Shown here: positions 3,320-20,000 of the stretch, one piece after another
Layout of the letters: the number at the start of each line of letters is the position of its first letter
Numbering within the stretch: the stretch's first letter is position 1
Notes under the pieces: model-generated
What the model saw: the letters and a program-made list of their open reading frames with translations, nothing else
Told to the model about the DNA's origin: nothing
The model's database searches: none
Position numbers and translations under genes: made by a program
IMG/VR virus record: IMGVR_UViG_3300026254_000003
Reading direction: 5' to 3' (one strand)
Length of the DNA: 20,000 bases
DNA from: an uncultured virus (IMG/VR IMGVR_UViG_3300026254_000003)
Taxonomy: Duplodnaviria > Heunggongvirae > Uroviricota > Caudoviricetes

Positions 3320-3541
3320 TTACTGCCCAAGTGGATAAGTGACGCGCTCGGCAGCACGCTGCTTTTTGATACTGCGCATTAGCGCAACAGAGCCTGCACT
3401 TCTCGCAGCCACTTCACATTCAGAGTGATTGGGAAAAAGCGCAGTGTAATACGATGCCGGCTTATCACTCTTCTTTGCGCGTTCTGACGCTGAAGGTGAA
3501 AGGATAACGGGTTGATTACAGTATTTGCATATTGACGGCAT
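3320..3541 (-). CDS. Small putative Zn-binding protein (CxxC...HxxC), 73 aa
   Basis: MPSICKYC...NHSEC. ATG 3541 follows the GGAGG of cassette 3. Confidence 0.8.
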   Translation of the reverse strand: MPSICKYCNQPVILSPSASERAKKSDKPASYYTALFPNHSECEVAARSAGSVALMRSIKKQRAAERVTYPLGQ

Positions 3542-3547
3542 GACGGC

Positions 3548-3598
3548 CTCCTGTTGTGTTGACAAGACAAGTATCTCAAATGGTGTGAGCGTTGTCAA
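3548..3598 (-). promoter_or_regulatory. Conserved promoter/RBS cassette, copy 3
   Basis: TTGACA (3598-3593)-N17-GATACT (3575-3570)-N5-TGTCAA (3564-3559)-CACAACAGGAG. Confidence 0.9.
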
Positions 3599-3630
3599 GT
3601 AAATTAGGCAAAAGGCCGCCTCTTGCAACG

Positions 3631-4967: not shown

Positions 4968-4974
4968 AATATTT

Positions 4975-5025
4975 CCTCTGTTGTGCTGACAGAGCGAGTA
5001 TTGCAAAAGCTGTGTTTTTTGTCAA
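4975..5025 (-). promoter_or_regulatory. Conserved promoter/RBS cassette, copy 4
   Basis: TTGACA (5025-5020)-N17-AATACT (5002-4997)-N5-TGTCAG-CACAACAGAGGA. Confidence 0.8.
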
Positions 5026-5052
5026 TAATCGCGTGAAGAACATCCAGAAAAA

Positions 5053-5262
5053 TCAAGAAAAGCTATCGCGAACATCGTCGTTCATGGCTTTTTTAGCCGT
5101 CGCTCGTGCCACTTTGTTGTGGTAGCGACGTTTCGCTTTCTTGTTGCGAATGCGTTCTCCCTGAGGAAGAAACTCTTGGCAGTCTGCAACATCCGGCCCG
5201 TAGGGCGAGATGTGTTCAGGGTTGCCTTTATAAATCCCGTAAGGGCGTCTTTTATTCGCCAT
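5053..5262 (-). CDS. Small basic hypothetical protein, 69 aa
   Basis: ORF track. GAGGA RBS; K/R-rich C-terminal half. Confidence 0.7.
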   Translation of the reverse strand: MANKRRPYGIYKGNPEHISPYGPDVADCQEFLPQGERIRNKKAKRRYHNKVARATAKKAMNDDVRDSFS

Positions 5263-5604: not shown

Positions 5605-5874
5605 CTACACCTTGTATAGCATTAGCGTGCCACCGTCATAGGGTTCGCCGTACCAGCCATTGTCATCGACGATAGCTTGTAGTGTAGGGTGCAGAGCGTC
5701 CTCGATAGTGCCTGCGTTAAAGATAGGTAAACCATCTGATGCAAACTCTTCGCTGCCTCGTAGCCAGATGCCTTTACGTGACGGGTCGCCGTAAAATTCA
5801 GCCATAGGTACGGCGTTCGCTTCTGGTAGCGCCTTATTGATTTTGCTGATCATTGCTTGTTCAGATAAAGCCAT
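5605..5874 (-). CDS. Hypothetical protein (MALSEQAMI..., 89 aa)
   Basis: ATG 5874 after the GGAG of cassette 5. Confidence 0.8.
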   Translation of the reverse strand: MALSEQAMISKINKALPEANAVPMAEFYGDPSRKGIWLRGSEEFASDGLPIFNAGTIEDALHPTLQAIVDDNGWYGEPYDGGTLMLYKV

Positions 5875-5880
5875 GTCTCT

Positions 5881-5931
5881 CTCCTGTTGTGTTGACAGGA
5901 TTAGTATCTCAAAAACTGAGAGTGTTGTCAA
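5881..5931 (-). promoter_or_regulatory. Conserved promoter/RBS cassette, copy 5
   Basis: TTGACA (5931-5926)-N17-GATACT (5908-5903)-N5-TGTCAA (5897-5892)-CACAACAGGAG. Confidence 0.9.
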
Positions 5932-5955
5932 TAAGAAACCGACATATTGCTCGTA

Positions 5956-6192
5956 TTAGTTAAACTTAGGTGTCACCAAGTTGGCGACGGCCTTACTCAT
6001 GATATGAGCGGTATCTTTGTTTTCCGAAAGCCTGACTTCCTGGATGAAACGGCGTATTGTAGCACGCTGCTGCGCACGCCATTGAAGCACCCTTTCAGGA
6101 TTGCGTTGTCGGGAGTAGGGAGCGCGATTACGTAATGCAAAATTAGCGCTTATTGCTCGTTGGCGAGATAAGACAAAGTCATTAAGCGTCAT
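5956..6192 (-). CDS. Arg-rich hypothetical protein (MTLNDFVL..., 78 aa)
   Basis: ATG 6192 after the GGAG of cassette 6. Confidence 0.75.
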   Translation of the reverse strand: MTLNDFVLSRQRAISANFALRNRAPYSRQRNPERVLQWRAQQRATIRRFIQEVRLSENKDTAHIMSKAVANLVTPKFN

Positions 6193-6198
6193 GGCATT

Positions 6199-6249
6199 CT
6201 CCTGTTGTGTTGACCATGTCAGCGTCTCAAAGTCAGAGAGCGTTGTCAA
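6199..6249 (-). promoter_or_regulatory. Conserved promoter/RBS cassette, copy 6
   Basis: TTGACA (6249-6244)-N17-GACGCT-N5-GGTCAA-CACAACAGGAG. Confidence 0.8.
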
Positions 6250-6286
6250 TATTTCCGACAAGTGTGTCGCGTGAATTAAGGAAAGA

Positions 6287-6484: not shown

Positions 6485-6490
6485 GTTTCT

Positions 6491-6541
6491 CTCCTGTTGT
6501 GTTGACAGTTTAAATATATCAATAAATTTGACAAAGTGCAA
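6491..6541 (-). promoter_or_regulatory. Conserved promoter/RBS cassette, copy 7 (variant)
   Basis: TTGCAC (6541-6536)-N17-TATATT-N5-TGTCAA (6507-6502)-CACAACAGGAG. Confidence 0.8.
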
Positions 6542-7931: not shown

Positions 7932-7984
7932 CCTGTTGTTGTGTTGACGGTTATTATATTAACAACAAACACAGCCTGTGTCAA
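7932..7984 (-). promoter_or_regulatory. Conserved promoter/RBS cassette, copy 8 (variant)
   Basis: TTGACA (7984-7979)-N17-TAATAT-N6-CGTCAA-CACAACAACAGGA. Confidence 0.8.
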
Positions 7985-8008: not shown

Positions 8009-8635
8009 TTATCTGTCTTGTGCCGAACGGGCATTGCGAAGCGCATCCGTGACACTCTCAACATCAGATTGAAAGCGCTCTAGGGCGCGATATTTCTCCG
8101 CAGCCTGTTTAACAGGCAACATGGTGTCGTCGGTCACTTCATCAAACTCTGCGTGAAGAAACTGCGCAATACGTGGTGGGAAAGCAATCAACACTTCGTT
8201 TATAGCGTCAGTGCCAGACTCAATAACGTCTTCAAGGCGGTCGCACAAGCGGTTCCAGCGCTCAAGCTCATCGACCGCTGCATGTAGTTCATTACTGAGT
8301 AAATCCCACATGACGGCGAAGGGTGCATCGCATCCCCAATCAGGGTGCGAAACGAGGGAGCCTTTAAATGTGATGGCTTCACCAAGTTCTATGGGAAGTA
8401 AGTCAGAATGTGGATAGTTGGCGTAAAGAAGCCCTCGCAATGCGACAACGTCCGATGGCAGTGGTTTGTCATCGTTACGCGTAGCAGTTGCGTTGTCTCG
8501 CGCCTGTATACTTCTGTAGCCTTCATGCTTAGTAAGAACATCAAGGACGGTGCTCTGTTTGACGTGTTTTGCGTTGTCTTTAGTTTGACAAGCAGTAACA
8601 ATGGCGGTGGCAAGGTGGCGTAATGGGTTGCTCAT
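8009..8635 (-). CDS. Leader-associated protein A (MSNPLRHLATAIVTACQTKDNAK..., 208 aa)
   Basis: ATG 8635 with GGAG RBS (8648-8645). The N-terminus resembles the 15096-15908 product. Confidence 0.8.
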   Translation of the reverse strand: MSNPLRHLATAIVTACQTKDNAKHVKQSTVLDVLTKHEGYRSIQARDNATATRNDDKPLPSDVVALRGLLYANYPHSDLLPIELGEAITFKGSLVSHPDWGCDAPFAVMWDLLSNELHAAVDELERWNRLCDRLEDVIESGTDAINEVLIAFPPRIAQFLHAEFDEVTDDTMLPVKQAAEKYRALERFQSDVESVTDALRNARSAQDR

Positions 8636-8835
8636 AATAGCGTTCTCCGAATGTGAATGTTCAAGCCCTACCAATTAACCTTGAAGCCTCACGCGGTAAA
8701 CGATTATAAACGTAAGTGTGCATTCAATGGTGCAAGAGTGGCCGGTCTGTATAAAACAAACACCCAAAGGGCGGTAGGCGGCGTGTGCTGCAACACACAT
8801 TTCGGTCATAGCGTCGTAACGCTCTCGAAACTTGT
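8636..8835 (-). ncRNA. Putative structured 5' leader with pseudoknot, copy A
   Basis: Stem 8660-8665/8680-8685. Loop 8667-8672 is complementary to 8773-8778. Adjacent CCC-AAA-GGG hairpin. Imperfect closing helix 8647-8661/8792-8805. Promoter TTGACA (8867-8862)-N16-TATTAT. Confidence 0.55.
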
Positions 8836-8868
8836 GTTAATAATACCAGTATTGATTAAAATGTCAAT

Positions 8869-8907
8869 AAAAAAGAAGCGAGGTTATGGCGGGGGAAACT
8901 CGCTTCT
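8869..8907 (-). terminator. Intrinsic terminator
   Basis: Minus strand AGAAGCGAG...CTCGCTTCT followed by a T-tract, downstream of the 8929 stop. Confidence 0.7.
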
Positions 8908-8928
8908 GTGTTGTTGATTGATTATTAA

Positions 8929-9288
8929 TTAGGACTCGGCGGTAGATTTTAATGATTCCGCCATCGTTTGCAGTACGGTTGCGCCCAACCCACGTGCGGT
9001 TTTGGCCCCACGGTTGGTAACATAGCGGCCATCAGCACCTGTCTTTAGTCCAAGCATTTGTGCAATGGCGTTGCCCACATTTTCTTGCGCTGAGGCGCTT
9101 GCTTCATCGCCTGAATCGTCCATCATTAACACGGTTGAGATGGCATCAAGTTGCGTTGGCGAAACGCTAAGTTGGTTCGTCTTGCCGGATACGGCTCCAT
9201 ACAGTTGAACAGAAGGTTTAAGGCCATCGCTGTTTTTGTTTTCTAGGCGTGACAGCTGGGTTTTGATGTAGCTTGTTTTTTGCGTCAT
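8929..9288 (-). CDS. Hypothetical protein, 119 aa
   Basis: ORF track; TAAGGA RBS. Confidence 0.8.
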   Translation of the reverse strand: MTQKTSYIKTQLSRLENKNSDGLKPSVQLYGAVSGKTNQLSVSPTQLDAISTVLMMDDSGDEASASAQENVGNAIAQMLGLKTGADGRYVTNRGAKTARGLGATVLQTMAESLKSTAES

Positions 9289-9351
9289 AGCAATTCCTTA
9301 TTAGGCCGCTGACCGCGGCCCTGTGGTTTAGTCAAAAAAAGAAAATGGTGC

Positions 9352-9948
9352 CTAGGCGTTTACGGACTTGCGCACTAACTCGTGATATTGCGCATCAATG
9401 TCATTGAGCATACCATTAGACTCGATGTCACAGCCTTCATAGCCAGAACGTTCGCAAATCATCGTGCCGTCATCATCGACCAGAAGAAAGCCGAAAGTGT
9501 CTTCCGAAATAAAGGCGTCGTACGCTTTAACCTCGGCTTTCATGTGTTCTTTAGCTTGGTTGCAGTGGTGAGCTTCAGTGCCGCCATAATAGGTGTCCAT
9601 GTCGCTGTGCGTCATGTAAATGACTCCGACCTGTCCGCTATCAAAAGCGCATGAGAACGGGATCGTTGACATGGTGATGCCAGAGTGGTCGTAAAGATGC
9701 AGTTCCAAGTAGACGGCAATAATGCCTAAACCTTGAGCCAGTCGAAACAATGATGCAGGATCTTGGCGGTCAAAGTCGGCAGATACTGAATCAAAATCAG
9801 GATGCCCAGAAATCATATCTGAAAGATCACCAGAAGCATCAACATCGCCTAATATATAGCGACGATGTTTGCACAGCATTCGGCCTTTGTTCTCAGCTTC
9901 GCGTGGGTTCAGTGCATCGGTTTCTTGGTAAATAGTAAATGTTGGCAT
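9352..9948 (-). CDS. Acidic hypothetical protein with LYDHSGITMS...FDSGQVG motif (198 aa)
   Basis: ATG 9948 after cassette 9. The motif is recalled from uncharacterised phage/conjugative-element proteins (not database-verified). Confidence 0.8.
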   Translation of the reverse strand: MPTFTIYQETDALNPREAENKGRMLCKHRRYILGDVDASGDLSDMISGHPDFDSVSADFDRQDPASLFRLAQGLGIIAVYLELHLYDHSGITMSTIPFSCAFDSGQVGVIYMTHSDMDTYYGGTEAHHCNQAKEHMKAEVKAYDAFISEDTFGFLLVDDDGTMICERSGYEGCDIESNGMLNDIDAQYHELVRKSVNA

Positions 9949-9956
9949 GAGTGCCG

Positions 9957-10008
9957 CTCCATGTTGTGTTGACAAATCAAGTATCTCAAAACATGTGGGC
10001 GTTGTCAA
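9957..10008 (-). promoter_or_regulatory. Conserved promoter/RBS cassette, copy 9
   Basis: TTGACA (10008-10003)-N17-GATACT (9985-9980)-N5-TGTCAA (9974-9969)-CACAACATGGAG. Confidence 0.9.
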
Positions 10009-10018
10009 TGTTTTAGTG

Positions 10019-10216
10019 TCACGTCACAGCGACGAGCCTTTCATTGGCAATATTAAATTGAGGCTTCATGGGTGCATCGTTGAATCGAACCATCGTTTTT
10101 CCATACGAGTAGCTGTCACATGATACAGTGCCAACATGTCCTTCTAGGGCTTTCAAGTGAGCGTTCATTGAGCCGTGCGCCTTGATAAAACGCACCTTTT
10201 CACCTTCTTTAAACAT
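10019..10216 (-). CDS. Small SH3/KOW-like beta protein (MFKEGEKVRF..., 65 aa)
   Basis: ATG 10216 with AAGGA RBS. F-K-x-G-E-K-V...GxVGTV...VRF pattern. Confidence 0.7.
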   Translation of the reverse strand: MFKEGEKVRFIKAHGSMNAHLKALEGHVGTVSCDSYSYGKTMVRFNDAPMKPQFNIANERLVAVT

Positions 10217-10268
10217 GATAAGTTTCCTTTTAAGAGATGTGGCGAAAGCACGCGCTCTCGCCATATCA

Positions 10269-10688
10269 TTACCAATTTTTAAAGTCTTCTGCGAGCTCAC
10301 CGTCAAGGTTGGCGGCAACCGTTGCTTTCACAATGTCTCGGATGGCGTCAATCCGCGCTTTACTGAGACTGAGATCAAGCGTCCATGTCTCCATGAGTCC
10401 AGAAGCGAAGCTGCACGGTGATTCTGCGTCAAGCAATGAATCAACATGATCACCGTTACCGTTCTCATCATATAAATCGCTAGACAGCATCATACATGAA
10501 GCATTTTGATGCGTATACAGCGCCGTTTTTACAATGATGTAACTGTCTGGATAGCTCGATGTGGCGATGTCATAGAAAGGCAAGTTGAGGTCCTCAATAT
10601 CATCGTAAGACGCCCCAAGTTTCGCCGCTATTTCAGGCAGCGGTGCCGGTGTGATTTTTGATGACAAAACACGATCTAAGAGACTCAT
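10269..10688 (-). CDS. Acidic hypothetical protein, 139 aa
   Basis: ORF track; ATGA overlap with the upstream gene. Confidence 0.8.
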   Translation of the reverse strand: MSLLDRVLSSKITPAPLPEIAAKLGASYDDIEDLNLPFYDIATSSYPDSYIIVKTALYTHQNASCMMLSSDLYDENGNGDHVDSLLDAESPCSFASGLMETWTLDLSLSKARIDAIRDIVKATVAANLDGELAEDFKNW

Positions 10689-11110
10689 AGCAGGCGCACC
10701 CCATCAAGTTGCAAAATACCTAAACCGCTTAATCCTGCTTCAGCGAGGACAGCCTTAGAGCCATCAATGTCGGTCTCAACAATTTCAACTTGAATAAAGC
10801 CGTTGCCGTCAGTGCATGAAGGCAACCTTTTCCAACTTGCTACAACACTGCAATCGTGGAAATTAACGGTCGCTGTTTGCTCGTCGTCATTTTTTTGGAT
10901 GGTGGGTGTTGGCTTATCTTCAAAAACAACATCAACGGTCAAGTTCAGTGGCTTGTAGGCGCTTTTGACGACAATTGACGCGGAGCCATCTTCGTCTTCT
11001 TCATACAGCACATTAAGGCTGACGTTACCAACGCGTAGCGCAAATGACAGCTCATAACCAAGTACGGCTTGCTTGTCGTCGTTTTTATAAATAGGGGTAT
11101 GTGAAAGCAT
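10685..11110 (-). CDS. Hypothetical beta-rich protein (MLSHTPIY..., 141 aa)
   Basis: ATG 11110 after the AAGGA of cassette 10. Confidence 0.8.
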   Translation of the reverse strand: MLSHTPIYKNDDKQAVLGYELSFALRVGNVSLNVLYEEDEDGSASIVVKSAYKPLNLTVDVVFEDKPTPTIQKNDDEQTATVNFHDCSVVASWKRLPSCTDGNGFIQVEIVETDIDGSKAVLAEAGLSGLGILQLDGVRLL

Positions 11111-11117
11111 GTGTATT

Positions 11118-11167
11118 CCTTGTTGTGTTGACAATGTCAGTGTCTCAAATTCTGTGAGTGATGTCAA
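11118..11167 (-). promoter_or_regulatory. Conserved promoter/RBS cassette, copy 10
   Basis: TTGACA (11167-11162)-N17-GACACT-N5-TGTCAA (11133-11128)-CACAACAAGGA. Confidence 0.85.
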
Positions 11168-11180
11168 CATGTCAATGTGG

Positions 11181-11525
11181 TTAGCCAAGCATCGTCAGCG
11201 CTAACGTGGTTTCCCGTGCGCTACCAAATTGATGAACGTGCGCTTTGAGATTAAGTACAAGGTGGTAGTGTTGTTGTAACGCCGATATACGTGTCATGTC
11301 GCCAACGACGCGCGCTTGAAGGTGCTCTATCTCCACCTGTGTTTGCTTAAGCTCAGAGGCGAGTAATGCCACGTTCTCGATGATGTTGCACAATGAGCCC
11401 GTGTCATGCTGTGGGTGAGCATATCGCTTATACAGGCGACGTATACTCGACAATGGGATGTAATAGGCTGGGATGACAATGGTGTCGACCCGGGCCTTAT
11501 CTTGTTTGCGATGAATTGAGTTCAT
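11181..11525 (-). CDS. Hypothetical protein, 114 aa
   Basis: ORF track; same strand, fills the gap; weak RBS. Confidence 0.65.
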   Translation of the reverse strand: MNSIHRKQDKARVDTIVIPAYYIPLSSIRRLYKRYAHPQHDTGSLCNIIENVALLASELKQTQVEIEHLQARVVGDMTRISALQQHYHLVLNLKAHVHQFGSARETTLALTMLG

Positions 11526-11568
11526 TTGTCGTGGCTATCGCTGTCGGAACCAGCAATCACTCATTAAA

Positions 11569-11826
11569 CTAATCATCGTCATCATCATTAGGGTTTTCCA
11601 TGCCCATGATTTCAATGGCGTGGTACATCACGGTGTTTAGCATCGCGTCCTCACCTGCATCACGTTCCATTTTAAGCGCTTCGAGGGCGTGTTCCACATC
11701 GTCACCGATCTCAAATGGCAAGTTGTCACGTTTGCAGAAGCTTTCATATTCCTCAAGCGCACGTTCAACGCAATCTTCCGTAAAGTACTGATCGTAGTAG
11801 CTCGACTTAAATAGTGTATCTGACAT
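11569..11826 (-). CDS. Highly acidic small protein, 85 aa
   Basis: GAGGA RBS. 25 D/E versus 6 K/R, ends in DDDDD. Confidence 0.8.
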   Translation of the reverse strand: MSDTLFKSSYYDQYFTEDCVERALEEYESFCKRDNLPFEIGDDVEHALEALKMERDAGEDAMLNTVMYHAIEIMGMENPNDDDDD

Positions 11827-11869
11827 AAGAAGTCCTCTTGAGAGCGGCCGATGTGCCGCCCTCCATTAA

Positions 11870-12370
11870 TTAAAGATAGGCTTGAACGATATACTTCGCT
11901 GAGCGAATGTGTTGGCAAACGAACGCGCTAAGCTCAGTGATTGCGTCTTGATAGTCAGGCGCAACAAGTGAAGTGTCTTTGAATCGCTCAAGCTCAGAAA
12001 ACACGGTGCGAAAACGAATGTCTTGTTCAATGAGAAGGTCAAACTCCTCTTCTTCCGTATATGCTGGTGGATTCGGGTCGGTCACAATTCGCGCTTCGCT
12101 AATGCCAGTAAGCAGGCGACTCTGGTCGCGGTAACCCACGGCATCCTCGGCCGCCATCAGGGCGTCGCGGAATGACAGCATATTAGTGATAGCAGTGCGG
12201 TGTGCGGTGATACACGTTTCACTCAGCAAGTCGCTTTTCGACAGATTCGTTGCCAGTATGGTAGCAATCTTATCTAACGCGACAACCTGCTCGCTGACGA
12301 CACGCAAAGGCAATGCGAAGCTATCTTGTATCGCTACCGGGTGCTCTGCCGGATAAACAGATGTTGGCAT
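11870..12370 (-). CDS. Hypothetical protein, 166 aa
   Basis: ORF track; follows cassette 11. Confidence 0.8.
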   Translation of the reverse strand: MPTSVYPAEHPVAIQDSFALPLRVVSEQVVALDKIATILATNLSKSDLLSETCITAHRTAITNMLSFRDALMAAEDAVGYRDQSRLLTGISEARIVTDPNPPAYTEEEEFDLLIEQDIRFRTVFSELERFKDTSLVAPDYQDAITELSAFVCQHIRSAKYIVQAYL

Positions 12371-12377
12371 GAAGTTT

Positions 12378-12428
12378 CTCCTGTTGTGTTGACGTTTTTA
12401 TTGTCTCAAAAAGAGAGGCTAAATGCAA
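12378..12428 (-). promoter_or_regulatory. Conserved promoter/RBS cassette, copy 11
   Basis: TTGCAT (12428-12423)-N17-GACAAT-N5-CGTCAA-CACAACAGGAG. Confidence 0.8.
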
Positions 12429-12433
12429 TCTTT

Positions 12434-13060
12434 TTATGCTTTTGAGGCGTCGCCATCAAGGATGTTTTCTGGCGTGTCCTTATATATTTCAGTTAACACT
12501 TTGTGGCGATAATAGCGCGCCATAATCAATGCTGACGCGTAACTTACCATGACGACGGTAAGGTGGACGTCAAAGATCACAAAGCAGGCACCTACCGCCG
12601 CACCTATTGCGGTATAGAGCATATCAAGCTTTGATTTAAGTAACGAATAGTCAGCGCAACCTGCGGTAACAATGCTGGTGGTTTGGTTGAGTATGGGCGA
12701 CATAATAATATTTGAAGAATACGTAACAATTGTCGCAATCGGCAATATCACGTGAGGAAAAACGTCATAGATTGTAAGCATATAGAAAACAAAAGCGAGC
12801 ACCTCAAAACCAATGGCGATATGAAAGGTTTTCATAGGATGCTCTTTAGCCATTTTCCCTAAGGCAGGAATGAAAATAGCAAGGCCAAGTACTGACAGCG
12901 CATAGTTTTTAAGCACTAGTCCATCTGCATTAAATAAATCAACGTACAGCATGACAATTGCTGCGCCAAGCAACGCATTGACAAACAGTAGGTAGAACGA
13001 CATGATTTGTTGATTACGGCGAAGTGGCGACAATGCCGCCACCTCTTTTATTAAATTCAC
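12434..13060 (-). CDS. Integral membrane protein (~6 TM helices, half-MFS-like size)
   Basis: About six hydrophobic segments. The GTG start at 13060 overlaps the upstream TGA (GTGA coupling). Confidence 0.75.
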   Translation of the reverse strand: MNLIKEVAALSPLRRNQQIMSFYLLFVNALLGAAIVMLYVDLFNADGLVLKNYALSVLGLAIFIPALGKMAKEHPMKTFHIAIGFEVLAFVFYMLTIYDVFPHVILPIATIVTYSSNIIMSPILNQTTSIVTAGCADYSLLKSKLDMLYTAIGAAVGACFVIFDVHLTVVMVSYASALIMARYYRHKVLTEIYKDTPENILDGDASKA

Positions 13061-13986
13061 GAGTGTTTTTCTCTCTTTTTTTGCTTCTCGAACCAACGGT
13101 GACCCATTGTCAACGCTTGCAAAGCGAGTTCCCTCTCGGCGTCACGTGATGCTTCATCAGGAGAGCACACGTCATCGTCACCTAACCGAACGTTGTCGCG
13201 TAAGTAATCTGACATTATGTCGTTGAATAAGTCAAAAACATAATGCCCATTGTTGCACGGTTCACTGGATGTGACAGATTCAATGTCGTCGCCATCAAGT
13301 TCAACAGAAACAAACTCATCGTCAAACTCAGCATACTCATTGTTTTTAACTTCCCAAAGAACATTGATGCTGTGGCCACCAAAAAGGAAAGAAACCTTAA
13401 CCTCATAGGCATCACTGCCTGAACGGCTAAACATGGGGCCGTCTAGGTCTTTAATGCGGAATTTAAACGACGATTTGTGTTCAATGAGTTTGTCGCGGTA
13501 GTAAGCGCACAGGGCTGCATTGCTCGTCCATGGTGAAAGCGCATCTCCTTTTACAGCAGCTGCATCACCTGCATTGTCGGTTAACAATTTAAGTAGCTTA
13601 TTGTAAGCGCGTTCAGATTCTCGCTCATAATGTTGCATATCATTGATCATGCTCAATGCGTTGTTCAACATACCCTTCGCCGCATTAAAATCATTGTGCG
13701 TGGGCGAGAGTGGCGCATCTGCATCGCGCTTCAAAAGGGCATAATTCTGACCGGTAAGGATCGTTGCCAATGTTTCTTGCGCGCGCTTTCTGTCCATCGG
13801 TGCATCTTCAAGCGTAAGCGTATCGAGTTGATGGCGTAGCGTATCGAGTTGTGTTTTGTCCTCATCATTGGCTTTGTAGGCCATCTGCTTAATGGCAGCG
13901 GAAACACGATCGCGTGAGGTATGAAGCGTCATGCTGTTACGTAGACGTGTAAGGGCCGCATTGATAAATGAAGTAGTGAATTTCAT
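13057..13986 (-). CDS. Leader-associated protein B, 309 aa
   Basis: ORF track. Helical N-terminal half with RAQETLATILTGQNYALL motif; acidic C-terminal alpha/beta domain. Confidence 0.85.
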   Translation of the reverse strand: MKFTTSFINAALTRLRNSMTLHTSRDRVSAAIKQMAYKANDEDKTQLDTLRHQLDTLTLEDAPMDRKRAQETLATILTGQNYALLKRDADAPLSPTHNDFNAAKGMLNNALSMINDMQHYERESERAYNKLLKLLTDNAGDAAAVKGDALSPWTSNAALCAYYRDKLIEHKSSFKFRIKDLDGPMFSRSGSDAYEVKVSFLFGGHSINVLWEVKNNEYAEFDDEFVSVELDGDDIESVTSSEPCNNGHYVFDLFNDIMSDYLRDNVRLGDDDVCSPDEASRDAERELALQALTMGHRWFEKQKKREKHS

Positions 13987-14155
13987 GATTGTACTGTTTC
14001 CGTTTTCGGTTCAGTTTAACAGCTCGTTCCTCCCTTGCGCCTGTTATTGGAGAACCGCTGGTGACAGTAGTTTCAATAAAAATCAGGTCGGTGTAACTTG
14101 CTAATATGGGCCTTACCCGTTAGGGCGGAGGAGGCAGTCGCTATTAGCGGCGACA
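13987..14155 (-). ncRNA. Putative structured 5' leader with pseudoknot, copy B
   Basis: Stems 14007-14012/14052-14057 and 14017-14022/14041-14046. Loop 14028-14033 is complementary to 14127-14132. Adjacent CCC-GTTA-GGG hairpin. Promoter TTGCAT (14189-14184)-N17-TAATAT (14166-14161). Confidence 0.55.
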
Positions 14156-14196
14156 GTTAAATATTAACAAAATACAGGCATCAATGCAACTATTAT

Positions 14197-14913
14197 TTAT
14201 GGTTTTGAGCGATAGAAAGGAACGCGATTGTTCATGATGCGAAGTTCTGCAATGTTCGCTTCTTTTATCGCTGACTGGCAGCCACCACAGGCATAGAGGT
14301 GACCAGAGAGGTACAGGATGCTGCCTTTTGCTTTATTTCCCGCCGCACGAAGCGCATTAACCTCTGCGTGCCCGTCCTGCTGGCACACGCTTTGACAAAG
14401 TTCGTATCCTTCGCCGGATTTCATGCCCTGCACCTCACGAGGGCATACCTTTTGAGGGTTGCGGCAAAGGTTTGTGCCGGTAAAAGATTCGCCATCTGGG
14501 GTTACCACGGTGGCATAGACGTTTTGTTTAACGCAAGGGCCACCAGCGCTATGAAGCTTAGTTATCCCAATACCATGTTCAAAGTAAGTGACGAAAAAGC
14601 CGGTTGCGTCGTGAAAGAAGTCCGCCACATCTTTGCGATAGAGTGTTAAGTGATTCCTTTTTACATTAACAGTCGTTTTTATTGTATCAATAATGCCATC
14701 AGGCACCATGTCGGCACGCCTAAGAAAGATGTGATTTTCTTGGTCGTTCTTTTGGAGGCTGTTGGCGATAACATATGTCATACCCAGCTCATGAAGCCCT
14801 GAGTGCATGATGAGATTGTCGTCAACAAAAGAAATTCCTTTACCGTCAATAATGCAAGAGGCATCATGGTAGCTTACCTGTAACTCTGGCATTGGGTGGT
14901 GAGAGCATGTCAT
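14197..14913 (-). CDS. Cytidine/deoxycytidylate deaminase-family protein with N-terminal extra domain
   Basis: HAEVNAL...LY...ACGGC Zn-binding motifs (HxE / CxxC) in the C-terminal ~115 aa. Confidence 0.8.
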   Translation of the reverse strand: MTCSHHPMPELQVSYHDASCIIDGKGISFVDDNLIMHSGLHELGMTYVIANSLQKNDQENHIFLRRADMVPDGIIDTIKTTVNVKRNHLTLYRKDVADFFHDATGFFVTYFEHGIGITKLHSAGGPCVKQNVYATVVTPDGESFTGTNLCRNPQKVCPREVQGMKSGEGYELCQSVCQQDGHAEVNALRAAGNKAKGSILYLSGHLYACGGCQSAIKEANIAELRIMNNRVPFYRSKP

Positions 14914-14922
14914 AAATGATTA

Positions 14923-14974
14923 CCTACGTTGTGTTGACAATAGCCATTGTCTCACAGGCAGTGTAGGTAGTCAA
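14923..14974 (-). promoter_or_regulatory. Conserved promoter/RBS cassette, copy 12
   Basis: TTGACT (14974-14969)-N17-GACAAT-N6-TGTCAA (14939-14934)-CACAACGTAGG. Confidence 0.8.
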
Positions 14975-14985
14975 TCACCTCTAAA

Positions 14986-15043
14986 GTGAACTACCCAGCG
15001 ACATCGCTTCGCTCTGTTCACGGGGTTTTCTCGACGATTTTCG
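14986..15043 (-). mobile_element. Possible miniature IS200/IS605-family remnant (PATE-like)
   Basis: Minus strand TTTAT|CGAAAATCGTCGAGAAAACCCC...GGGTAGTTCAC. The GAAxxCCCC..GGGTAGTTCAC pattern resembles IS200/IS605 right ends, and TTTAT is a known family target motif. Confidence 0.5.
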
Positions 15044-15055
15044 ATAAAGAACACA

Positions 15056-15086
15056 AGCGCCACCAGGTTGCCGGTGGCGTTTTTTT
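15056..15086. terminator. Intrinsic terminator (possibly bidirectional)
   Basis: CGCCACC (15058-15064)/GGTGGCG (15073-15079) stem, T7 on the plus strand, T-rich tail on the minus strand. Confidence 0.7.
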
Positions 15087-15095
15087 ATGAACAAA

Positions 15096-15908
15096 TTAAC
15101 GTTTTTCTATTTTACCGGATGCTAAAAACATCTGTTGGCATGCGATGTCACCGCAATTTAACGTTAAATCGCACACCGGCGACAATGTTCGAATGAGCTC
15201 ATGGCCAATCCCGCTGACGAGAAAGGGAATAATGGGGTCGTCACCTTCATCAAACGTAGAGGTTGTTAATCCAGTTAACGAGGAGAATAATTTGCCGCCC
15301 TCATGAAGTGAGATGCTTGTCGCTTGACCAAATCCCATTTCCATCTCGCTGCTAAAGTATTCGGTGATGTCATTTTGCGTTTCAAGTTCTACTTCGTACC
15401 CAATATCACAGGCAGAGAGATCAGCATCATCAAACAGTTTTAATGTCGCATCAACGAGAAGTTTACCGAAGGCCCTAGAGTATTCAACGTTGATAATAAC
15501 GCCAAGATAGCAGGTGGTTTTTTCAGGATCGTCGGTGTATCCCGTCGTTTTTATGGTTAATAATGGAAGGTTCATAAACCAGCTAGGGGCTGGGTCGCTA
15601 CCTGAAATCACTCTACCCACTTCGCCAACACGCGCAACACGCGACATCATGGGGCTAAGTAGTGTGCTGATGAAGGTTGCAGGATCGTCAAAATTGTCGC
15701 TGACTTTTTCATCAAGTAACGCTGATAGCTTGTTTGCGTTTGATGTGCCCATCATGTCAGCGAAATAAGCGAACAATTTGGCGGGTTTTTGGGTGTTTCC
15801 GAAGTGCTTGGCGTTCACGTCATTCATGTGCTGACGCAATGCCTTTGCATCATCTTTAGTGCGCAGAGCATTAACAAGCGTGGTAAAAAATAACTTAGGT
15901 GTGTTCAT
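15096..15908 (-). CDS. Leader-associated protein C, 270 aa
   Basis: ORF track; GGAG RBS. N-terminus TTLVNALRTKDDAK is similar to protein A's TAIVTACQTKDNAK. Confidence 0.85.
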   Translation of the reverse strand: MNTPKLFFTTLVNALRTKDDAKALRQHMNDVNAKHFGNTQKPAKLFAYFADMMGTSNANKLSALLDEKVSDNFDDPATFISTLLSPMMSRVARVGEVGRVISGSDPAPSWFMNLPLLTIKTTGYTDDPEKTTCYLGVIINVEYSRAFGKLLVDATLKLFDDADLSACDIGYEVELETQNDITEYFSSEMEMGFGQATSISLHEGGKLFSSLTGLTTSTFDEGDDPIIPFLVSGIGHELIRTLSPVCDLTLNCGDIACQQMFLASGKIEKR

Positions 15909-16092
15909 ACATCATTCTCCGTATTGCGTGTCTTTTTCTTGCCTTCCCGGGGTGATGACACGCTACAGTTCATAATGTAAACGTGGATTGCTAAATGATA
16001 GCGTAATGTTCATCGTTAATGATATTTGCAAGCGCATGGCGCCGGAAGGCTGCTAGGTTCTCACCTGTGTTTGCCGCACATCACTGTGAAGC
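15909..16092 (-). ncRNA. Putative structured 5' leader with pseudoknot, copy C
   Basis: Stem 15926-15932/15957-15963. Loop 15941-15947 is complementary to 16044-16050. Adjacent GCGC-ATG-GCGC hairpin. Promoter TTGACT (16127-16122)-N17-CAAAAT. Confidence 0.55.
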
Positions 16093-16128
16093 ATTTTCAT
16101 TTTGGCAGTATTGAACATGAAAGTCAAC

Positions 16129-16155
16129 AAAAAAACGCCTAAAATGGCGCTTTTT
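16129..16155. terminator. Bidirectional intrinsic terminator
   Basis: AAAAAAACGCC-TAAAAT-GGCGCTTTTTT. Confidence 0.65.
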
Positions 16156-16185
16156 GTTAACGAAATATTGTGAGGTTTAAGAAGC

Positions 16186-16421: not shown

Positions 16422-17048
16422 TTATGCGCGTAATGCGCTAGGTAATAGGCCGTCTTCAAGTCGTCCACGGATAGTTTCACCATCGCTACGGCGAACATCA
16501 AACAGCGTATGCGGGTCTGCTGGCAGTAGCAAGGTCGCGCTATCAATCGGTGTTCGAGGTTCATCAAGAGGCCAATTGAGCTTCATGGTGAGCTTTACAC
16601 GCTGCGTAGCGTCGTCAAAACCTATATCAAATTTGGGTGTAAATGGGGTGTCGTCAAACACACAGTCAAGACAATAAGGTAGGCTAACATTATTTTGGGC
16701 AAGGGATTCAATGCTCTGGTTATTAACCTCCATACCCGCATCAATCAGCGCGACCCACTGTCCAACAAGTTCAACAAACCACTCGTTTTCCCAACCGTGT
16801 TTTGCACTCCAAATAAATGCCCCTTGCGCGTTCTGTACGTGAGTAAGGTGACGTAAATGTTCTGGGATAGCCTTGCCGACGTAGGCTACCATGTCGGCTG
16901 CACTGACGGCGATTTCCATCCCGCTCTGACGCGAGTTGGTTTTTTGACTGCCTGAAGCATTCTTGCTGGTTTGTGAAAAGTAAAAACGGTACTTTTCCTG
17001 CGGTAGCAACCACAATAAAGGCGGCATAAATTCTGTTGGCGACATCAT
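16422..17048 (-). CDS. Hypothetical protein, 208 aa
   Basis: ORF track; GGGA RBS. Confidence 0.8.
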   Translation of the reverse strand: MMSPTEFMPPLLWLLPQEKYRFYFSQTSKNASGSQKTNSRQSGMEIAVSAADMVAYVGKAIPEHLRHLTHVQNAQGAFIWSAKHGWENEWFVELVGQWVALIDAGMEVNNQSIESLAQNNVSLPYCLDCVFDDTPFTPKFDIGFDDATQRVKLTMKLNWPLDEPRTPIDSATLLLPADPHTLFDVRRSDGETIRGRLEDGLLPSALRA

Positions 17049-17063
17049 AGGTTCCCGTGGTAA

Positions 17064-17390
17064 TTAATCAGTTAACGCACGCTTGCGTAGCGCATCGGAT
17101 AGCGTAACTTCATAACAAGTCGATGTAAAATAACTGTCAGGTTGATAAGTGAAGACCAATAAGGCGTTGCAGGCACTGTTTCGCGCGGAGGCCGCCAGGG
17201 TTTCATCCTTTCGGTTACGAACAATGATCAGCTCGCCTTGAATATTGTCACGTTCGCTTTCGTAGACATCAAGGATGGCTTGCGTTGCGCTGCACACTAT
17301 CATGCGTACGCCCATGCCGTCGCCAGTTCGAGCAAAGTGTCGGTTAGGCTTGTTGATTAATAGCTTCTTGTCTTTCTCTGTTAACGCCAT
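17064..17390 (-). CDS. Hypothetical protein (MALTEKDK..., 108 aa)
   Basis: ATG 17390 after the GGAG of cassette 13. Confidence 0.8.
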   Translation of the reverse strand: MALTEKDKKLLINKPNRHFARTGDGMGVRMIVCSATQAILDVYESERDNIQGELIIVRNRKDETLAASARNSACNALLVFTYQPDSYFTSTCYEVTLSDALRKRALTD

Positions 17391-17396
17391 AATGCG

Positions 17397-17447
17397 CTCC
17401 ATTTGTGTTGACTAAAACAGGTTCGCACAGCCTGTGTTTTTTGTCAA
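17397..17447 (-). promoter_or_regulatory. Conserved promoter/RBS cassette, copy 13 (weak -10)
   Basis: TTGACA (17447-17442)-N17-GAACCT-N5-AGTCAA-CACAAATGGAG. Confidence 0.75.
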
Positions 17448-17494
17448 CAGATAATACACCTATCTGCCGTTGAGAACGAATGATGCACCACCGG

Positions 17495-17839
17495 TTAAGT
17501 AAGGTGCATTGCGCATGTCTCCGGCTTAACAGCATCAATAACGGCGATAAACATGGCGCGCTCATAGGTGTCTGCAAAATTGGTGAAAATGTACCTAGAG
17601 TGGCATGACTCACGCCATCGCACAGCATGTTTAAGGTTGTGCTTGTTTTCTATCCACCAAAGATCATCCGCCGTTCGCGTATCCACCGTGGCGAACATCT
17701 CGCCATTATTATTGCTACTAAAAGTGATCGCAACATTGAACGTTTTTTCGATGTCACCTTTTTCAGATGGAATGCCACATTGCTTAAGCAAGCGCTTCAA
17801 TGCAGGCATTGGTAGTTGTCTTAATAGAGCTGATGACAT
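17495..17839 (-). CDS. Hypothetical protein with SAP/HeH-like N-terminus, 114 aa
   Basis: GGAG RBS. LRQLPMPALKRLLKQCGIP resembles the first half of a SAP motif. Confidence 0.75.
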   Translation of the reverse strand: MSSALLRQLPMPALKRLLKQCGIPSEKGDIEKTFNVAITFSSNNNGEMFATVDTRTADDLWWIENKHNLKHAVRWRESCHSRYIFTNFADTYERAMFIAVIDAVKPETCAMHLT

Positions 17840-17869
17840 CGCTTATCTCCGATAGTGTGAGCATTACAC

Positions 17870-18226
17870 TCAGCGGTTGTTGTACTCAGTAACAGCTTTC
17901 CAGATGGTGCCCGTTAGCGTTTCTAGTGAGCAGGTGTAGCTCGGTGTCGCCGTATTACACAACACGTAAACAGAAAACACACCGTCGTCAGTACCGCTCA
18001 CGCGAACGCTATCGCAATAATCAGGTTCAAACGGAACAACCACATCAATAGCGGCACCGTCAACCTTGTTGATGGCCGCTTTTGCGTCATCAAGCGTCGC
18101 CTCAGCACCGTCGCTAGGAATAGCGATCCACCAGCCTATTGCATACACCGCGTCGGCCACAGATAGTGCCATAGGAGTGTTGAGAGATTCACCCTCAGTC
18201 ATTGCTTTAACGTCTTCCATATTCAT
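17870..18226 (-). CDS. Acidic hypothetical protein, 118 aa
   Basis: ORF track; TAAGG RBS. Confidence 0.8.
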   Translation of the reverse strand: MNMEDVKAMTEGESLNTPMALSVADAVYAIGWWIAIPSDGAEATLDDAKAAINKVDGAAIDVVVPFEPDYCDSVRVSGTDDGVFSVYVLCNTATPSYTCSLETLTGTIWKAVTEYNNR

Positions 18227-18294
18227 GGTGTTGCCTTAATGTTTTGTTCTAAAAATAGGGCGAGGGGCCACGTAGGGCACCTCTTGTTGTGTGG

Positions 18295-18702
18295 TTACGC
18301 CACTTTGCAGGTATGAAAAAGCGAAGGTGGACCAATGCGGGTTTCGCCTGTTTTGACATCCCTGATAACCAATGAGTTCTTAGGTCGGTTGGGTTTAATG
18401 CCAGCGGCAGTGTACTGCTTGTTGTTAATAATAAGCACCGTACCGTAACCATCGGCAGGAAGGTCGAAGCGTGGTGCGTAAAGCGCCCAATCCGCCTTGG
18501 CCTGAGCCTCTATGTCTTCTCTGTTGATGTCAGCCGCAATGTTGATTTTTGACGACATGCCGGACCCATCCGCTTGAAGTGTCATACTTCCTTCTAGCGT
18601 GACCGTCAGACCGTACTCGTTTTTAAGTTCGCTCAGTTTATCTCTAATAATATTAGCAACATCACGTGCGTTGCTCTTATCAATGCGGGTGATTTTAGGC
18701 AT
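18295..18702 (-). CDS. Phage-like hypothetical protein (MPKITRIDK..., 135 aa)
   Basis: ATG 18702 after the GGAG of cassette 14. Resemblance to phage early hypotheticals is recalled, not verified. Confidence 0.8.
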   Translation of the reverse strand: MPKITRIDKSNARDVANIIRDKLSELKNEYGLTVTLEGSMTLQADGSGMSSKINIAADINREDIEAQAKADWALYAPRFDLPADGYGTVLIINNKQYTAAGIKPNRPKNSLVIRDVKTGETRIGPPSLFHTCKVA

Positions 18703-18708
18703 GTCATT

Positions 18709-18759
18709 CTCCTGTTGTGTTGACAGGATCAGTATCTCAAAATCTGCGATGGTTGTCAA
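18709..18759 (-). promoter_or_regulatory. Conserved promoter/RBS cassette, copy 14
   Basis: TTGACA (18759-18754)-N17-GATACT (18736-18731)-N5-TGTCAA (18725-18720)-CACAACAGGAG. Confidence 0.9.
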
Positions 18760-18760
18760 T

Positions 18761-19965: not shown

Positions 19966-20000
19966 TATACGCCGTATAAAGCTTGGTTCGCTGTCTTCTA

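Follow-up and report, generated by a model that had tools for sequence, protein, structure and literature searches.

In the 20,000-nucleotide (nt) stretch of DNA analysed here (the window), which comes from the uncultured virus record IMGVR_UViG_3300026254_000003 (Caudoviricetes), three minus-strand genes are each preceded by a leader of about 170 to 200 nt, and the locus raises the question of what these long leaders do. The three differ in sequence and share one layout, in which a C/U-rich bulge near the predicted 5' end of the transcript is exactly complementary to part of a hairpin loop close to the ribosome-binding site. We propose, with a probability of roughly 0.45, that they represent a new cis-acting element of 5' untranslated regions (UTRs), a predicted pseudoknot that would clamp a hairpin occluding the ribosome-binding site.

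Read on the minus strand, the sense strand of the genes, leaders 1, 2 and 3 (about 8833-8636, 14155-13987 and 16092-15909) have the same order of parts. A first hairpin (P1) is followed by 4-5 nt, a C/U-rich bulge of 6 or 7 nt, one G and a small G+C hairpin (P2); 3-4 of the 4-5 nt between P1 and the bulge pair with a stretch on the far side of P2 as a short closing helix. The resulting units of bulge and P2 are CCUACC-G-CCCuuuGGG (8778-8763), UCCUCC-G-CCCuaacGGG (14132-14116) and GCCUUCC-G-GCGCcauGCGC (16050-16032). The exact complement of each bulge lies farther downstream, after a gap of 100, 93 and 96 nt in leaders 1, 2 and 3, respectively, in the loop (14, 18 and 24 nt) of a hairpin, P3, that has a stem of 6-7 base pairs (bp). 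This loop segment stands 31-41 nt ahead of the AUG, and P3 is prolonged downward by a second helix, P3a, the base of which runs into the Shine-Dalgarno (SD) sequence and AUG. All of these helices are free of mismatches in all three leaders, and in each leader the C/U-rich bulge is the sole upstream 6-mer perfectly complementary to the P3 loop. The parts of the three leaders, with their promoters and genes, are as follows.

8840..8867, minus strand: predicted sigma70 promoter of leader 1, TTGACA-16-TATTAT with an extended -10 (11 of 12 matches in the promoter scan)
8864-8917: intrinsic terminator hairpin just ahead of the leader 1 promoter
8636..8833, minus strand: leader 1, the 5' UTR of the gene at 8635-8009, with its transcription start predicted
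8741..8798, minus strand: 5' domain of leader 1, with P1 GUGUG/CACAC (8798-8794 / 8787-8783), closing helix GCCG/CGGC (8782-8779 / 8744-8741), bulge CCUACC (8778-8773), G8772 and P2 CCC/GGG (8771-8769 / 8765-8763)
8761-8745: extra hairpin of leader 1
8653..8692, minus strand: 3' domain of leader 1, with P3a GUGAG/UUCAC, P3 UUCAAG/CUUGAA and a 14-nt loop containing GGUAGG (8672-8667); a predicted basal extension pairs the SD (GGAG, 8649-8646) and the AUG at 8635
8009..8635, minus strand: gene 1, 208 amino acids, without a known family
14161..14189, minus strand: putative promoter of leader 2, TTGCAT-17-TAATAT with TG ahead
13987..14155, minus strand: leader 2, the 5' UTR of the gene at 13986-13057
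14101..14154, minus strand: 5' domain of leader 2, with P1 GUCGC/GCGAC (14154-14150 / 14141-14137), closing helix GCC/GGC (14135-14133 / 14112-14110), bulge UCCUCC (14132-14127), G14126 and P2 CCC/GGG (14125-14123 / 14118-14116)
14069..14100, minus strand: variable A/U-rich linker of leader 2, with indels at 14091 and 14097 in metagenome-run contigs
13993..14068, minus strand: 3' domain of leader 2, with basal helix ACUGU/ACAGU, P3a CGGUUC/GAACCG, P3 UAACAG/CUGUUA and an 18-nt loop containing GGAGGA (14033-14028); the 3' flank of this hairpin contains the SD GGA (14002-14000)
13057..13986, minus strand: gene 2, 309 amino acids, of a small unannotated family
16099..16127, minus strand: predicted sigma70 promoter of leader 3, TTGACT-17-CAAAAT with TG (promoter scan)
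16155-16130: terminator just ahead of the leader 3 promoter
15909..16092, minus strand: leader 3, the 5' UTR of the gene at 15908-15096
16028..16066, minus strand: 5' domain of leader 3, with P1 AGGU/ACCU (16066-16063 / 16058-16055), closing helix GCA/UGC (16053-16051 / 16030-16028), bulge GCCUUCC (16050-16044), G16043 and P2 GCGC/GCGC (16042-16039 / 16035-16032)
15919..15968, minus strand: 3' domain of leader 3, with P3a CUGUA/UACGG overlapping the SD GGAG (15920-15917), P3 GCGUGUC/GACACGC and a 24-nt loop containing GGAAGGC (15947-15941)
15096..15908, minus strand: gene 3, 270 amino acids, without a known family, monocistronic between leader 3 and a terminator at 15055-15082

An earlier, sequence-only reading of this DNA had described one layout in three divergent long intergenic regions, with the complement about 95-100 nt away in the loop of a 6-7 bp stem that differs in each copy and with the loop 30-45 nt from the start codon. 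All of these sequence statements check out, the measured distances being 93-100 nt and 31-41 nt, and the strings that it quoted on the plus strand are the complements of the gene-sense unit on the minus strand. The same reading gave each leader its own sigma70-like promoter; the scan called those of leaders 1 and 3, whereas that of leader 2 was read by eye and was not called.

Comparison of the P3 loops with shuffled loops of the same composition gave P values of 0.022, 0.084 and 0.0077 for leaders 1, 2 and 3, respectively. When the layout was written as a descriptor and searched against the window, it returned the three leaders and two unrelated matches on the plus strand (at 5190 and 6702). 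A single match to this descriptor means little, because shuffled sequences often match it as well, but three matches with one geometry, in precisely the three long leaders, are far from chance.

Evidence that the leaders are functional came from their conservation. A metagenome scan gave six loci, one of which is the window's own contig (L001). Leader 2 was found in all five of the others, which represent three lineages, leader 3 in two (L002 and L004) and leader 1 in one (L002). Four-fold degenerate sites of gene 2 differ at 52 of 79 positions in L002 and at 40 of 62 in L005, which amounts to saturation, and the protein identity of gene 2 is 62% for L002-L004 and 44% for L005 and L006. The 5' domain of leader 2, by comparison, is identical at 55/58 positions in L002 and 53/58 in L005, and the 3' domain at 68/76 and 56/77 (Fisher tests against four-fold sites, p = 4.5e-14 to 1.5e-5). 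The linker between the domains, identical at 21/30 positions in L002 (p = 0.0011) and at 10/32 in L005 (p = 0.82), with indels, is evolving at about the neutral rate when judged by the alignment with the distant L005. For leader 3, 2 of 184 positions differ from L004, compared to 20/112 four-fold sites of gene 3 (p = 1.2e-7) and to 33/202 positions in the 200 nt upstream; for leader 1, no difference from L002 is seen over 200 nt, compared to 5/97 four-fold sites of gene 1 (p = 0.0035). Natural indels at 8744-8751 in leader 1 and 14091-14097 in leader 2 were present in metagenome-run contigs. Similarity to L005 and L006 begins at the first bases of the predicted leader 2 transcript, and the leader 2 promoter is swapped for unrelated sequence in these two loci. 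These comparisons indicate that both leader domains are under strong purifying selection, tighter than that on the encoded proteins, and are functional non-coding sequence.

The family of leaders is real and conserved, with a distribution that is narrow as far as seen. No further relatives were found in viral contigs, searched with single proteins and with an alignment as query, or in a first scan of genome contigs. An invariant 18-mer of leader 2 was absent from viral contigs and had four matches in genome contigs, all of them chance, and phage and plasmid collections gave nothing relevant with DNA (near and distant modes), genes 2 and 3 or protein P0044.

The pairing was examined in an alignment of leader 2 (six rows, four of them distinct, from three lineages). 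A 35-pair structure that includes the long-range helix leaves 99.3% of cells paired, and sliding the partners by 1-3 columns lowers this to 28-43%. Two pairs show compensatory changes in L005/L006, namely the first long-range pair (U:A to C:G) and one P3 pair (A:U to U:A). Another P3 pair changes from A:U to G:U, and in the L002 group the pair flanking P2 changes from G:U to A:C, a non-standard pair that is known to take the place of G:U in a wobble-like manner. RNAalifold, which does not consider pseudoknots, pairs the same U locally with an A, and this pair becomes C:C in L005/L006. The U-to-C change breaks the local pair and therefore favours the long-range pairing and its register. Among the three leaders themselves, the bulge and loop 6-mers differ at three of six positions (1, 3 and 4) with complementarity always perfect, and the closing helix varies yet stays paired (GCCG/CGGC, GCC/GGC and GCA/UGC). 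In leader 2, an invariant UAUUAGC (14107-14101) could pair alternatively with the P1 loop. Another pairing in leader 2, between 14120-14103 and 13962-13945 in the coding region, was rejected as it is not kept in L002.

The claim of covariation in the sequence-only reading holds in part: pairing is kept across three paralogues that differ in sequence, whereas the orthologues contribute two compensatory pairs only, which come from a single lineage. The covariation statistics are suggestive and not of R-scape grade. The broader claim of a conserved, structured, cis-located RNA leader, in which a long-range loop pairing is kept as the sequence changes, is borne out by the conservation and pairing data taken together.

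Several features point to a function at the level of RNA. The conserved block spans the distance from the predicted transcript start to the start codon, and the G:U pairs of the structure work on the gene-sense strand only, the template strand giving C-A mismatches. Contigs from RNA library X20 carry each of leaders 1 and 3 together with its gene and stop at 8819 and 16076, which is 14-16 nt inside the predicted starts; the X20 contigs upstream of them stop at 8887 and 16170, and DNA contigs of run X14 cross both gaps. These breaks, which come from one study, give a weak hint in support of leader transcription, and transcription of the leaders is likely. Reading frames on the reverse strand across the leaders (8657-8917 and 13931-14104) were also considered and rejected, the frame over leader 2 being broken by indels in L005.

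We propose that each region serves its own mRNA as a 5' untranslated leader and consists of two conserved domains, with a freely evolving A/U-rich linker between them. The 5' domain would present the C/U-rich bulge between its short closing helix and the small G+C hairpin, and the 3' domain would form a long, imperfect hairpin that, in its lower part, pairs with the SD and the start codon or lies against them. Pairing of bulge and loop may dock the two domains into a compact pseudoknotted fold, and the docked fold would hold the hairpin that covers the ribosome-binding site shut, such that the message is made and poorly translated until the clamp opens. A trans-acting factor, cleavage of the linker and temperature are candidate triggers of opening. 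In the predicted ensemble of leader 1, the unpaired probability is 0.25 for the SD and 0.04 for the AUG, and in that of leader 2 it is 0.02 and 0.13, respectively. For leaders 1 and 3, the prediction leaves the bulge and loop segments mostly free to pair (unpaired 0.66-0.81), and in leader 2 the nested fold already pairs the bulge with the loop segment (unpaired 0.21 and 0.17). The predicted energy of the 6-7 bp contact between bulge and loop is -8.1 to -11.3 kcal/mol. Because GGUAGG and GGAAGG remain complementary to their bulges although they deviate from the SD consensus, selection acts on intramolecular pairing rather than on binding of the ribosome; a role of the loop segments as a ribosome standby site or SD mimic was rejected on the same observation. 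From these predictions we infer an action on translation, with pairing repressing rather than activating it; an activating role of the pairing, like that described for the repZ leaders compared below, is possible.

A number of observations weigh against the clamp proposal. The descriptor was composed after the three leaders had been seen, and on 200 shuffled windows it gave a mean of 0.8 matches, with at least one match in 105 of them. A covariance model of the leader 2 orthologues, which scores leader 2 at 207 bits, had no match on leader 1 or leader 3 at E up to 10, and because of this failure the notion of a shared fold rests on that post hoc descriptor. The fold that RNAalifold prefers for leader 2 contains an 8-bp helix of the P1 loop with 14107-14100, in competition with P1. 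The single lineage L005/L006 accounts for both double changes, and a shuffle control was not decisive, as 21 of 500 shuffles reached the count of doubly changed cells and 101 of 500 reached the covariation score. Only three lineages are available for leader 2, and leaders 1 and 3 are nearly invariant. The folding energies of the single sequences are unremarkable (z = -1.9, -1.1 and -1.2), and in the predicted ensemble of leader 3 the SD and AUG are only about half paired (unpaired 0.5 and 0.6). Finally, RNA libraries X15 and X17 yield contigs of about 9 kb over whole gene arrays and may hold DNA.

Other explanations of the conserved leaders have to be weighed against the proposed clamp. The folded leader may be a protein operator, with the gene's own product (autoregulation) or a regulator encoded by the element binding the 5' domain or the docked fold and setting translation or the life of the mRNA. 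The main argument for such binding is that the 5' domain of leader 2 is nearly invariant even in its loops and unpaired stretches, because pairing alone cannot explain this invariance, although it could equally stem from nucleotides that take part in two alternative pairings. The paralogous leaders are quite different in sequence, as expected for separate specificities, and genes 1 and 3 share an N-terminal segment (the first 39 residues are alike, with 41% identity and E = 8e-4), but gene 2 is not detectably related to either, and no RNA-binding family or fold was found in the products. We regard a protein operator as unlikely, if well worth keeping in view. The leaders may also set mRNA stability or processing, the 5' hairpins protecting against 5'-end-dependent decay and RNase III or RNase E cutting the 3' hairpin or the linker. 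Hairpins near the predicted 5' end in all three leaders, long and imperfect 3' hairpins, and a linker that is A/U-rich, single-stranded in predictions and unconstrained in the comparison with L005 (p = 0.0011 for that with L002) would suit this explanation. A protective hairpin, however, needs neither a conserved long-range complement nor the geometry of the bulge, and a site of this kind seems distinctly improbable as the reason for the conservation.

A riboswitch, in which a small molecule binds in a pocket of the docked domains, would have the usual layout seen here, a two-domain fold closed by a pseudoknot beside the ribosome-binding site. Members of one riboswitch class share unpaired core nucleotides, but the three copies have almost none in common: 27 of 190 columns are invariant in a MAFFT alignment of the three leaders and their orthologues, in which the paralogues are misaligned. 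In addition, the leader 2 model misses leaders 1 and 3, no Rfam riboswitch scores and the downstream genes hint at no metabolite, which together make a riboswitch very unlikely. The sequence-only reading had listed riboswitch and ribozyme among its options; both fare badly, as there is almost no shared unpaired core, no detection of one leader by a covariance model of another and no scoring ribozyme model. A further option of that reading, a non-coding RNA partner of the downstream protein, gained no support from the structure model of the gene 2 product described below. Self-cleaving ribozymes, for which no shared catalytic core is seen either, and chance occurrence of the layout in three A/T-poor intergenic stretches are together hardly credible. 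Complements of 6-7 nt are indeed common, with seven perfect 7-mers in the 401 nt around leader 3, and shuffled windows match the descriptor at the rate given above, but purifying selection on both domains far exceeds that at four-fold sites and compensatory changes are present. Action of the hairpins in single-stranded DNA during conjugative transfer, as a Frpo-like promoter or priming site, would fit the adjacency of the array to a gene for a single-stranded-DNA-binding protein (SSB), and relatives of one neighbouring gene occur next to ssb on MOBH conjugative plasmids. In the part of the source that describes them, published Frpo candidates are regions of 50-350 bp upstream of leading-region genes (PMC11541004). 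When the DNA is folded as a single strand, however, the -35 and -10 hexamers do not lie in one duplex with complementary arms; moreover, conservation begins downstream of the promoter, and on the template strand C-A mismatches would take the place of the G:U pairs and of the G:U-to-A:C change. To our knowledge, a pseudoknot has no role in promoter or priming sites of single-stranded DNA, and we give this explanation almost no credence.

A more specific version of the proposed clamp can be considered, in which the leaders are address-coded RNA clamps that have one tertiary architecture, with each bulge-loop pair and each 5' domain carrying its own sequence and each mRNA being opened by its own partner only. 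The partner could be the encoded protein, or a host or element factor met on entry into a new cell. We regard this version as a long shot.

Some features of leader 1 set it apart from the other two. In leader 1 only, the bulge and P2 (8780-8761) may refold into a 6-bp hairpin that is followed by a U-rich run, a terminator-like arrangement that is not found in leaders 2 and 3; an attenuator was rejected as a general explanation, the U-tract after P2 being present in leader 1 only. Binding sites of the CsrA type were rejected as well, GGA occurring in the P3 loops of just two of the three leaders. In contigs of runs X17 and X14, 739 other letters stand in place of 8834-8959 (126 nt). This replacement takes the end of the upstream gene, the terminator and the promoter, and its boundary falls exactly at the start of leader 1.

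Analysis of the downstream genes gave few leads. Gene 3 has a 49% relative (P0003). The gene 2 family has 17 representatives at E <= 0.001 among 1.84 billion proteins, and 3 of 12 scanned members weakly touch PF20066. Compared to L002 (10001-10912), gene 2 is 62% identical while the flanking genes are 98-100% identical, as for a hypervariable or replaced gene whose leader was kept. A structure model of the gene 2 product is confident (predicted local distance difference test, pLDDT, 86.8; predicted template modelling score, pTM, 0.61) and has no informative structural match: the best Foldseek match had E = 0.12, and the best VIA Z was 6.5, for short helical stretches only. Searches of the Protein atlas, Pfam and PHROGs with the gene products gave nothing useful.

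All genes of the window are on the minus strand, and nearly all are without a known family. The sole Pfam match in the window is a zinc-binding cytidine/dCMP-deaminase domain, at the C-terminal end of a 238-amino-acid protein (14197-14913) encoded between leaders 2 and 3 behind a standard promoter cassette; PHROGs adds a few families of unknown function. Ahead of the deaminase gene is a repeat of about 64 nt (14985-15048) that recurs in many unrelated metagenome contigs and matches two Pseudoalteromonas plasmids, in one of which it lies directly beside an IS200/IS605 tnpA-tnpB pair; it probably represents the end of an IS200/IS605 element or a small derivative of such an end. The distant relative L005 carries a TnpB (OrfB_IS605) gene and an open reading frame with RRXRR and HNH domains that looks IscB-like (13054-14223 and 16922-18241).

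The window is part of a metagenome contig, L001, of 229,889 bp, with identity over 16,941 nt. On its upstream side, beyond window position 20000, the array adjoins the SSB gene and a gene for a 447-amino-acid trypsin-like peptidase, both in the same orientation (L001 2294-2944 and 2978-4321). Relatives of the protein encoded at 9352-10008 occur next to ssb and recT on MOBH conjugative plasmids, pDK1 among them, and in some phages too. No origin of transfer (oriT) or relaxase was found in the DNA examined, namely the window and the neighbouring part of the 230-kb contig. The sequencing runs that hold the element are marine, and, to judge by its gene content, it is probably either a conjugative plasmid or an integrative element, with a marine gammaproteobacterium as host.

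A search for repeat families found a shared promoter cassette at 14 distinct sites of the window, in agreement with the 14-copy standard cassette of the sequence-only reading. The cassette consists of TTGACA, a 17-nt spacer with a small dyad, GATACT and a conserved short 5' UTR that ends in AGGAG.

536-591, 2541-2601, 3539-3599, 4969-5028, 5872-5932, 6190-6250, 6485-6541, 7937-7959, 9949-10009, 11108-11168, 12369-12429, 14920-14975, 17388-17448, 18700-18760: sites of the shared promoter cassette

The dyad, TCTCA..TGAGA in most copies, looks like the operator of one common repressor. The cassette is absent from the L005 contig, and a 15-mer of it has at least 118 single unrelated matches, which are uninformative.

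If the proposed clamp is correct, the leaders would form a new family of structured 5' leaders whose domains dock via long-range pairing of a bulge with a loop, present in three copies within 8 kb, with three different codes, before genes of an abundant marine mobile element that resist annotation and are partly hypervariable. Some genes of the array would then be controlled after transcription, unlike their 14 neighbours on one shared promoter cassette, and the leaders would offer an entry point to the function of the genes downstream. Three naturally orthogonal versions of one fold would be of interest to RNA structural biologists and to designers of riboregulators. If the address-coded version also held, the leaders would be natural orthogonal translational locks on arms-race genes, or the RNA component of a new RNA-protein system.

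Structured 5' leaders that regulate in cis are a known kind of element, and on the evidence of covariance-model scores the leaders described here match no family in Rfam 15. At gathering scores, Rfam 15 had no match in the window, in keeping with the earlier statement that the motif is not a recognised family. When matches at E up to 10 were considered, the sole one lying mainly inside a leader was Hrs13 over leader 1, with 11.6 bits compared to the 52 needed. The other sub-threshold matches fall mostly in promoter or terminator regions, with RsaF (16067-16171) and ceN100 (13966-14031) reaching the edges of leaders, and all are far below threshold; hammerhead, twister, pistol, hatchet and HDV-like ribozymes had no Rfam match even at E up to 10. 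Novelty here means absence from Rfam 15 only, the literature having been searched for comparators and not for the motif itself.

Among known systems, riboswitches of the ZTP/pfl type have two subdomains bridged by a pseudoknot across a variable linker. The leaders are like them in having two conserved subdomains, a linker of free sequence and a long-range pairing beside the expression platform, but they match neither the ZTP/pfl model nor any other Rfam model and have no core common to the three copies. In hok, the 5' end of a short toxin mRNA pairs with its 3' end, the mRNA is inert until processed and control is by antisense RNA. By analogy, the leaders may likewise belong to mobile-element mRNAs kept translationally inert by long-range intramolecular pairing; here, however, both partners lie in the 5' leader and the proteins have 208-309 amino acids.

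Of the described systems, the T4 gene 32 operator and the repZ leader pseudoknot of IncI-alpha plasmids come closest, and the leaders lack features that define each. The operator of T4 gene 32 is, in the part of the source that deals with it, a compact pseudoknot (about 28 nt) that precedes over 40 nt of unstructured UUAAA/UAAA repeats and is bound by the gene's own single-strand-binding product (PMC535899). As far as that account goes, the likeness is that of a leader pseudoknot upstream of the ribosome-binding site that controls translation of the following gene. In contrast to that operator, the pairing here extends over about 100 nt, leaders 1 and 2 have an SD and AUG that are predicted to be paired, and the products are without a known nucleic-acid-binding fold. 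Frpo works as folded DNA, with a stem that recreates the -35 and -10 boxes, according to the portion of the source concerned with it (PMC11541004). Set beside that portion, the leaders resemble Frpo and ssi sites as long structured non-coding regions before early genes of conjugative elements, often near ssb, but their boxes do not lie in such a stem and their conserved part lies downstream of the boxes. When the plus strand of the three intergenic regions was folded with DNA parameters, the -10 box was unpaired or the boxes were in different, unrelated stems.

In the repZ leader of IncI-alpha plasmids, the pairing of an activator pseudoknot depends on translation of a leader peptide. No leader peptide common to the three leaders was found here, the reading frames being one of 45 codons that lacks an SD in leader 1, one of 15 codons at the start of the transcript in leader 3 and none in leader 2. 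As for an antisense gene, leaders 1 and 3 have no promoter-like site on the plus strand, the leader 2 site at 13961-13989 is not kept in L002, and no plus-strand terminator is present in any leader. In the repZ and repA leaders of IncI-alpha and IncB plasmids, the activator pseudoknot of which was reportedly described by Asano and Mizobuchi in 1998, pairing is, as the relevant part of the source presents it, needed for translation and blocked by an antisense RNA (PMC8383071). Going by that description, the leaders differ in that the hairpin that supplies the loop is here the one beside the ribosome-binding site, and in that the genes are not replication initiators. What the leaders share with repZ, on the same description, is that a hairpin loop in the leader of a mobile element pairs with a distant complement upstream of the ribosome-binding site, here through 6-7 bp between segments 93-100 nt apart in all three leaders.

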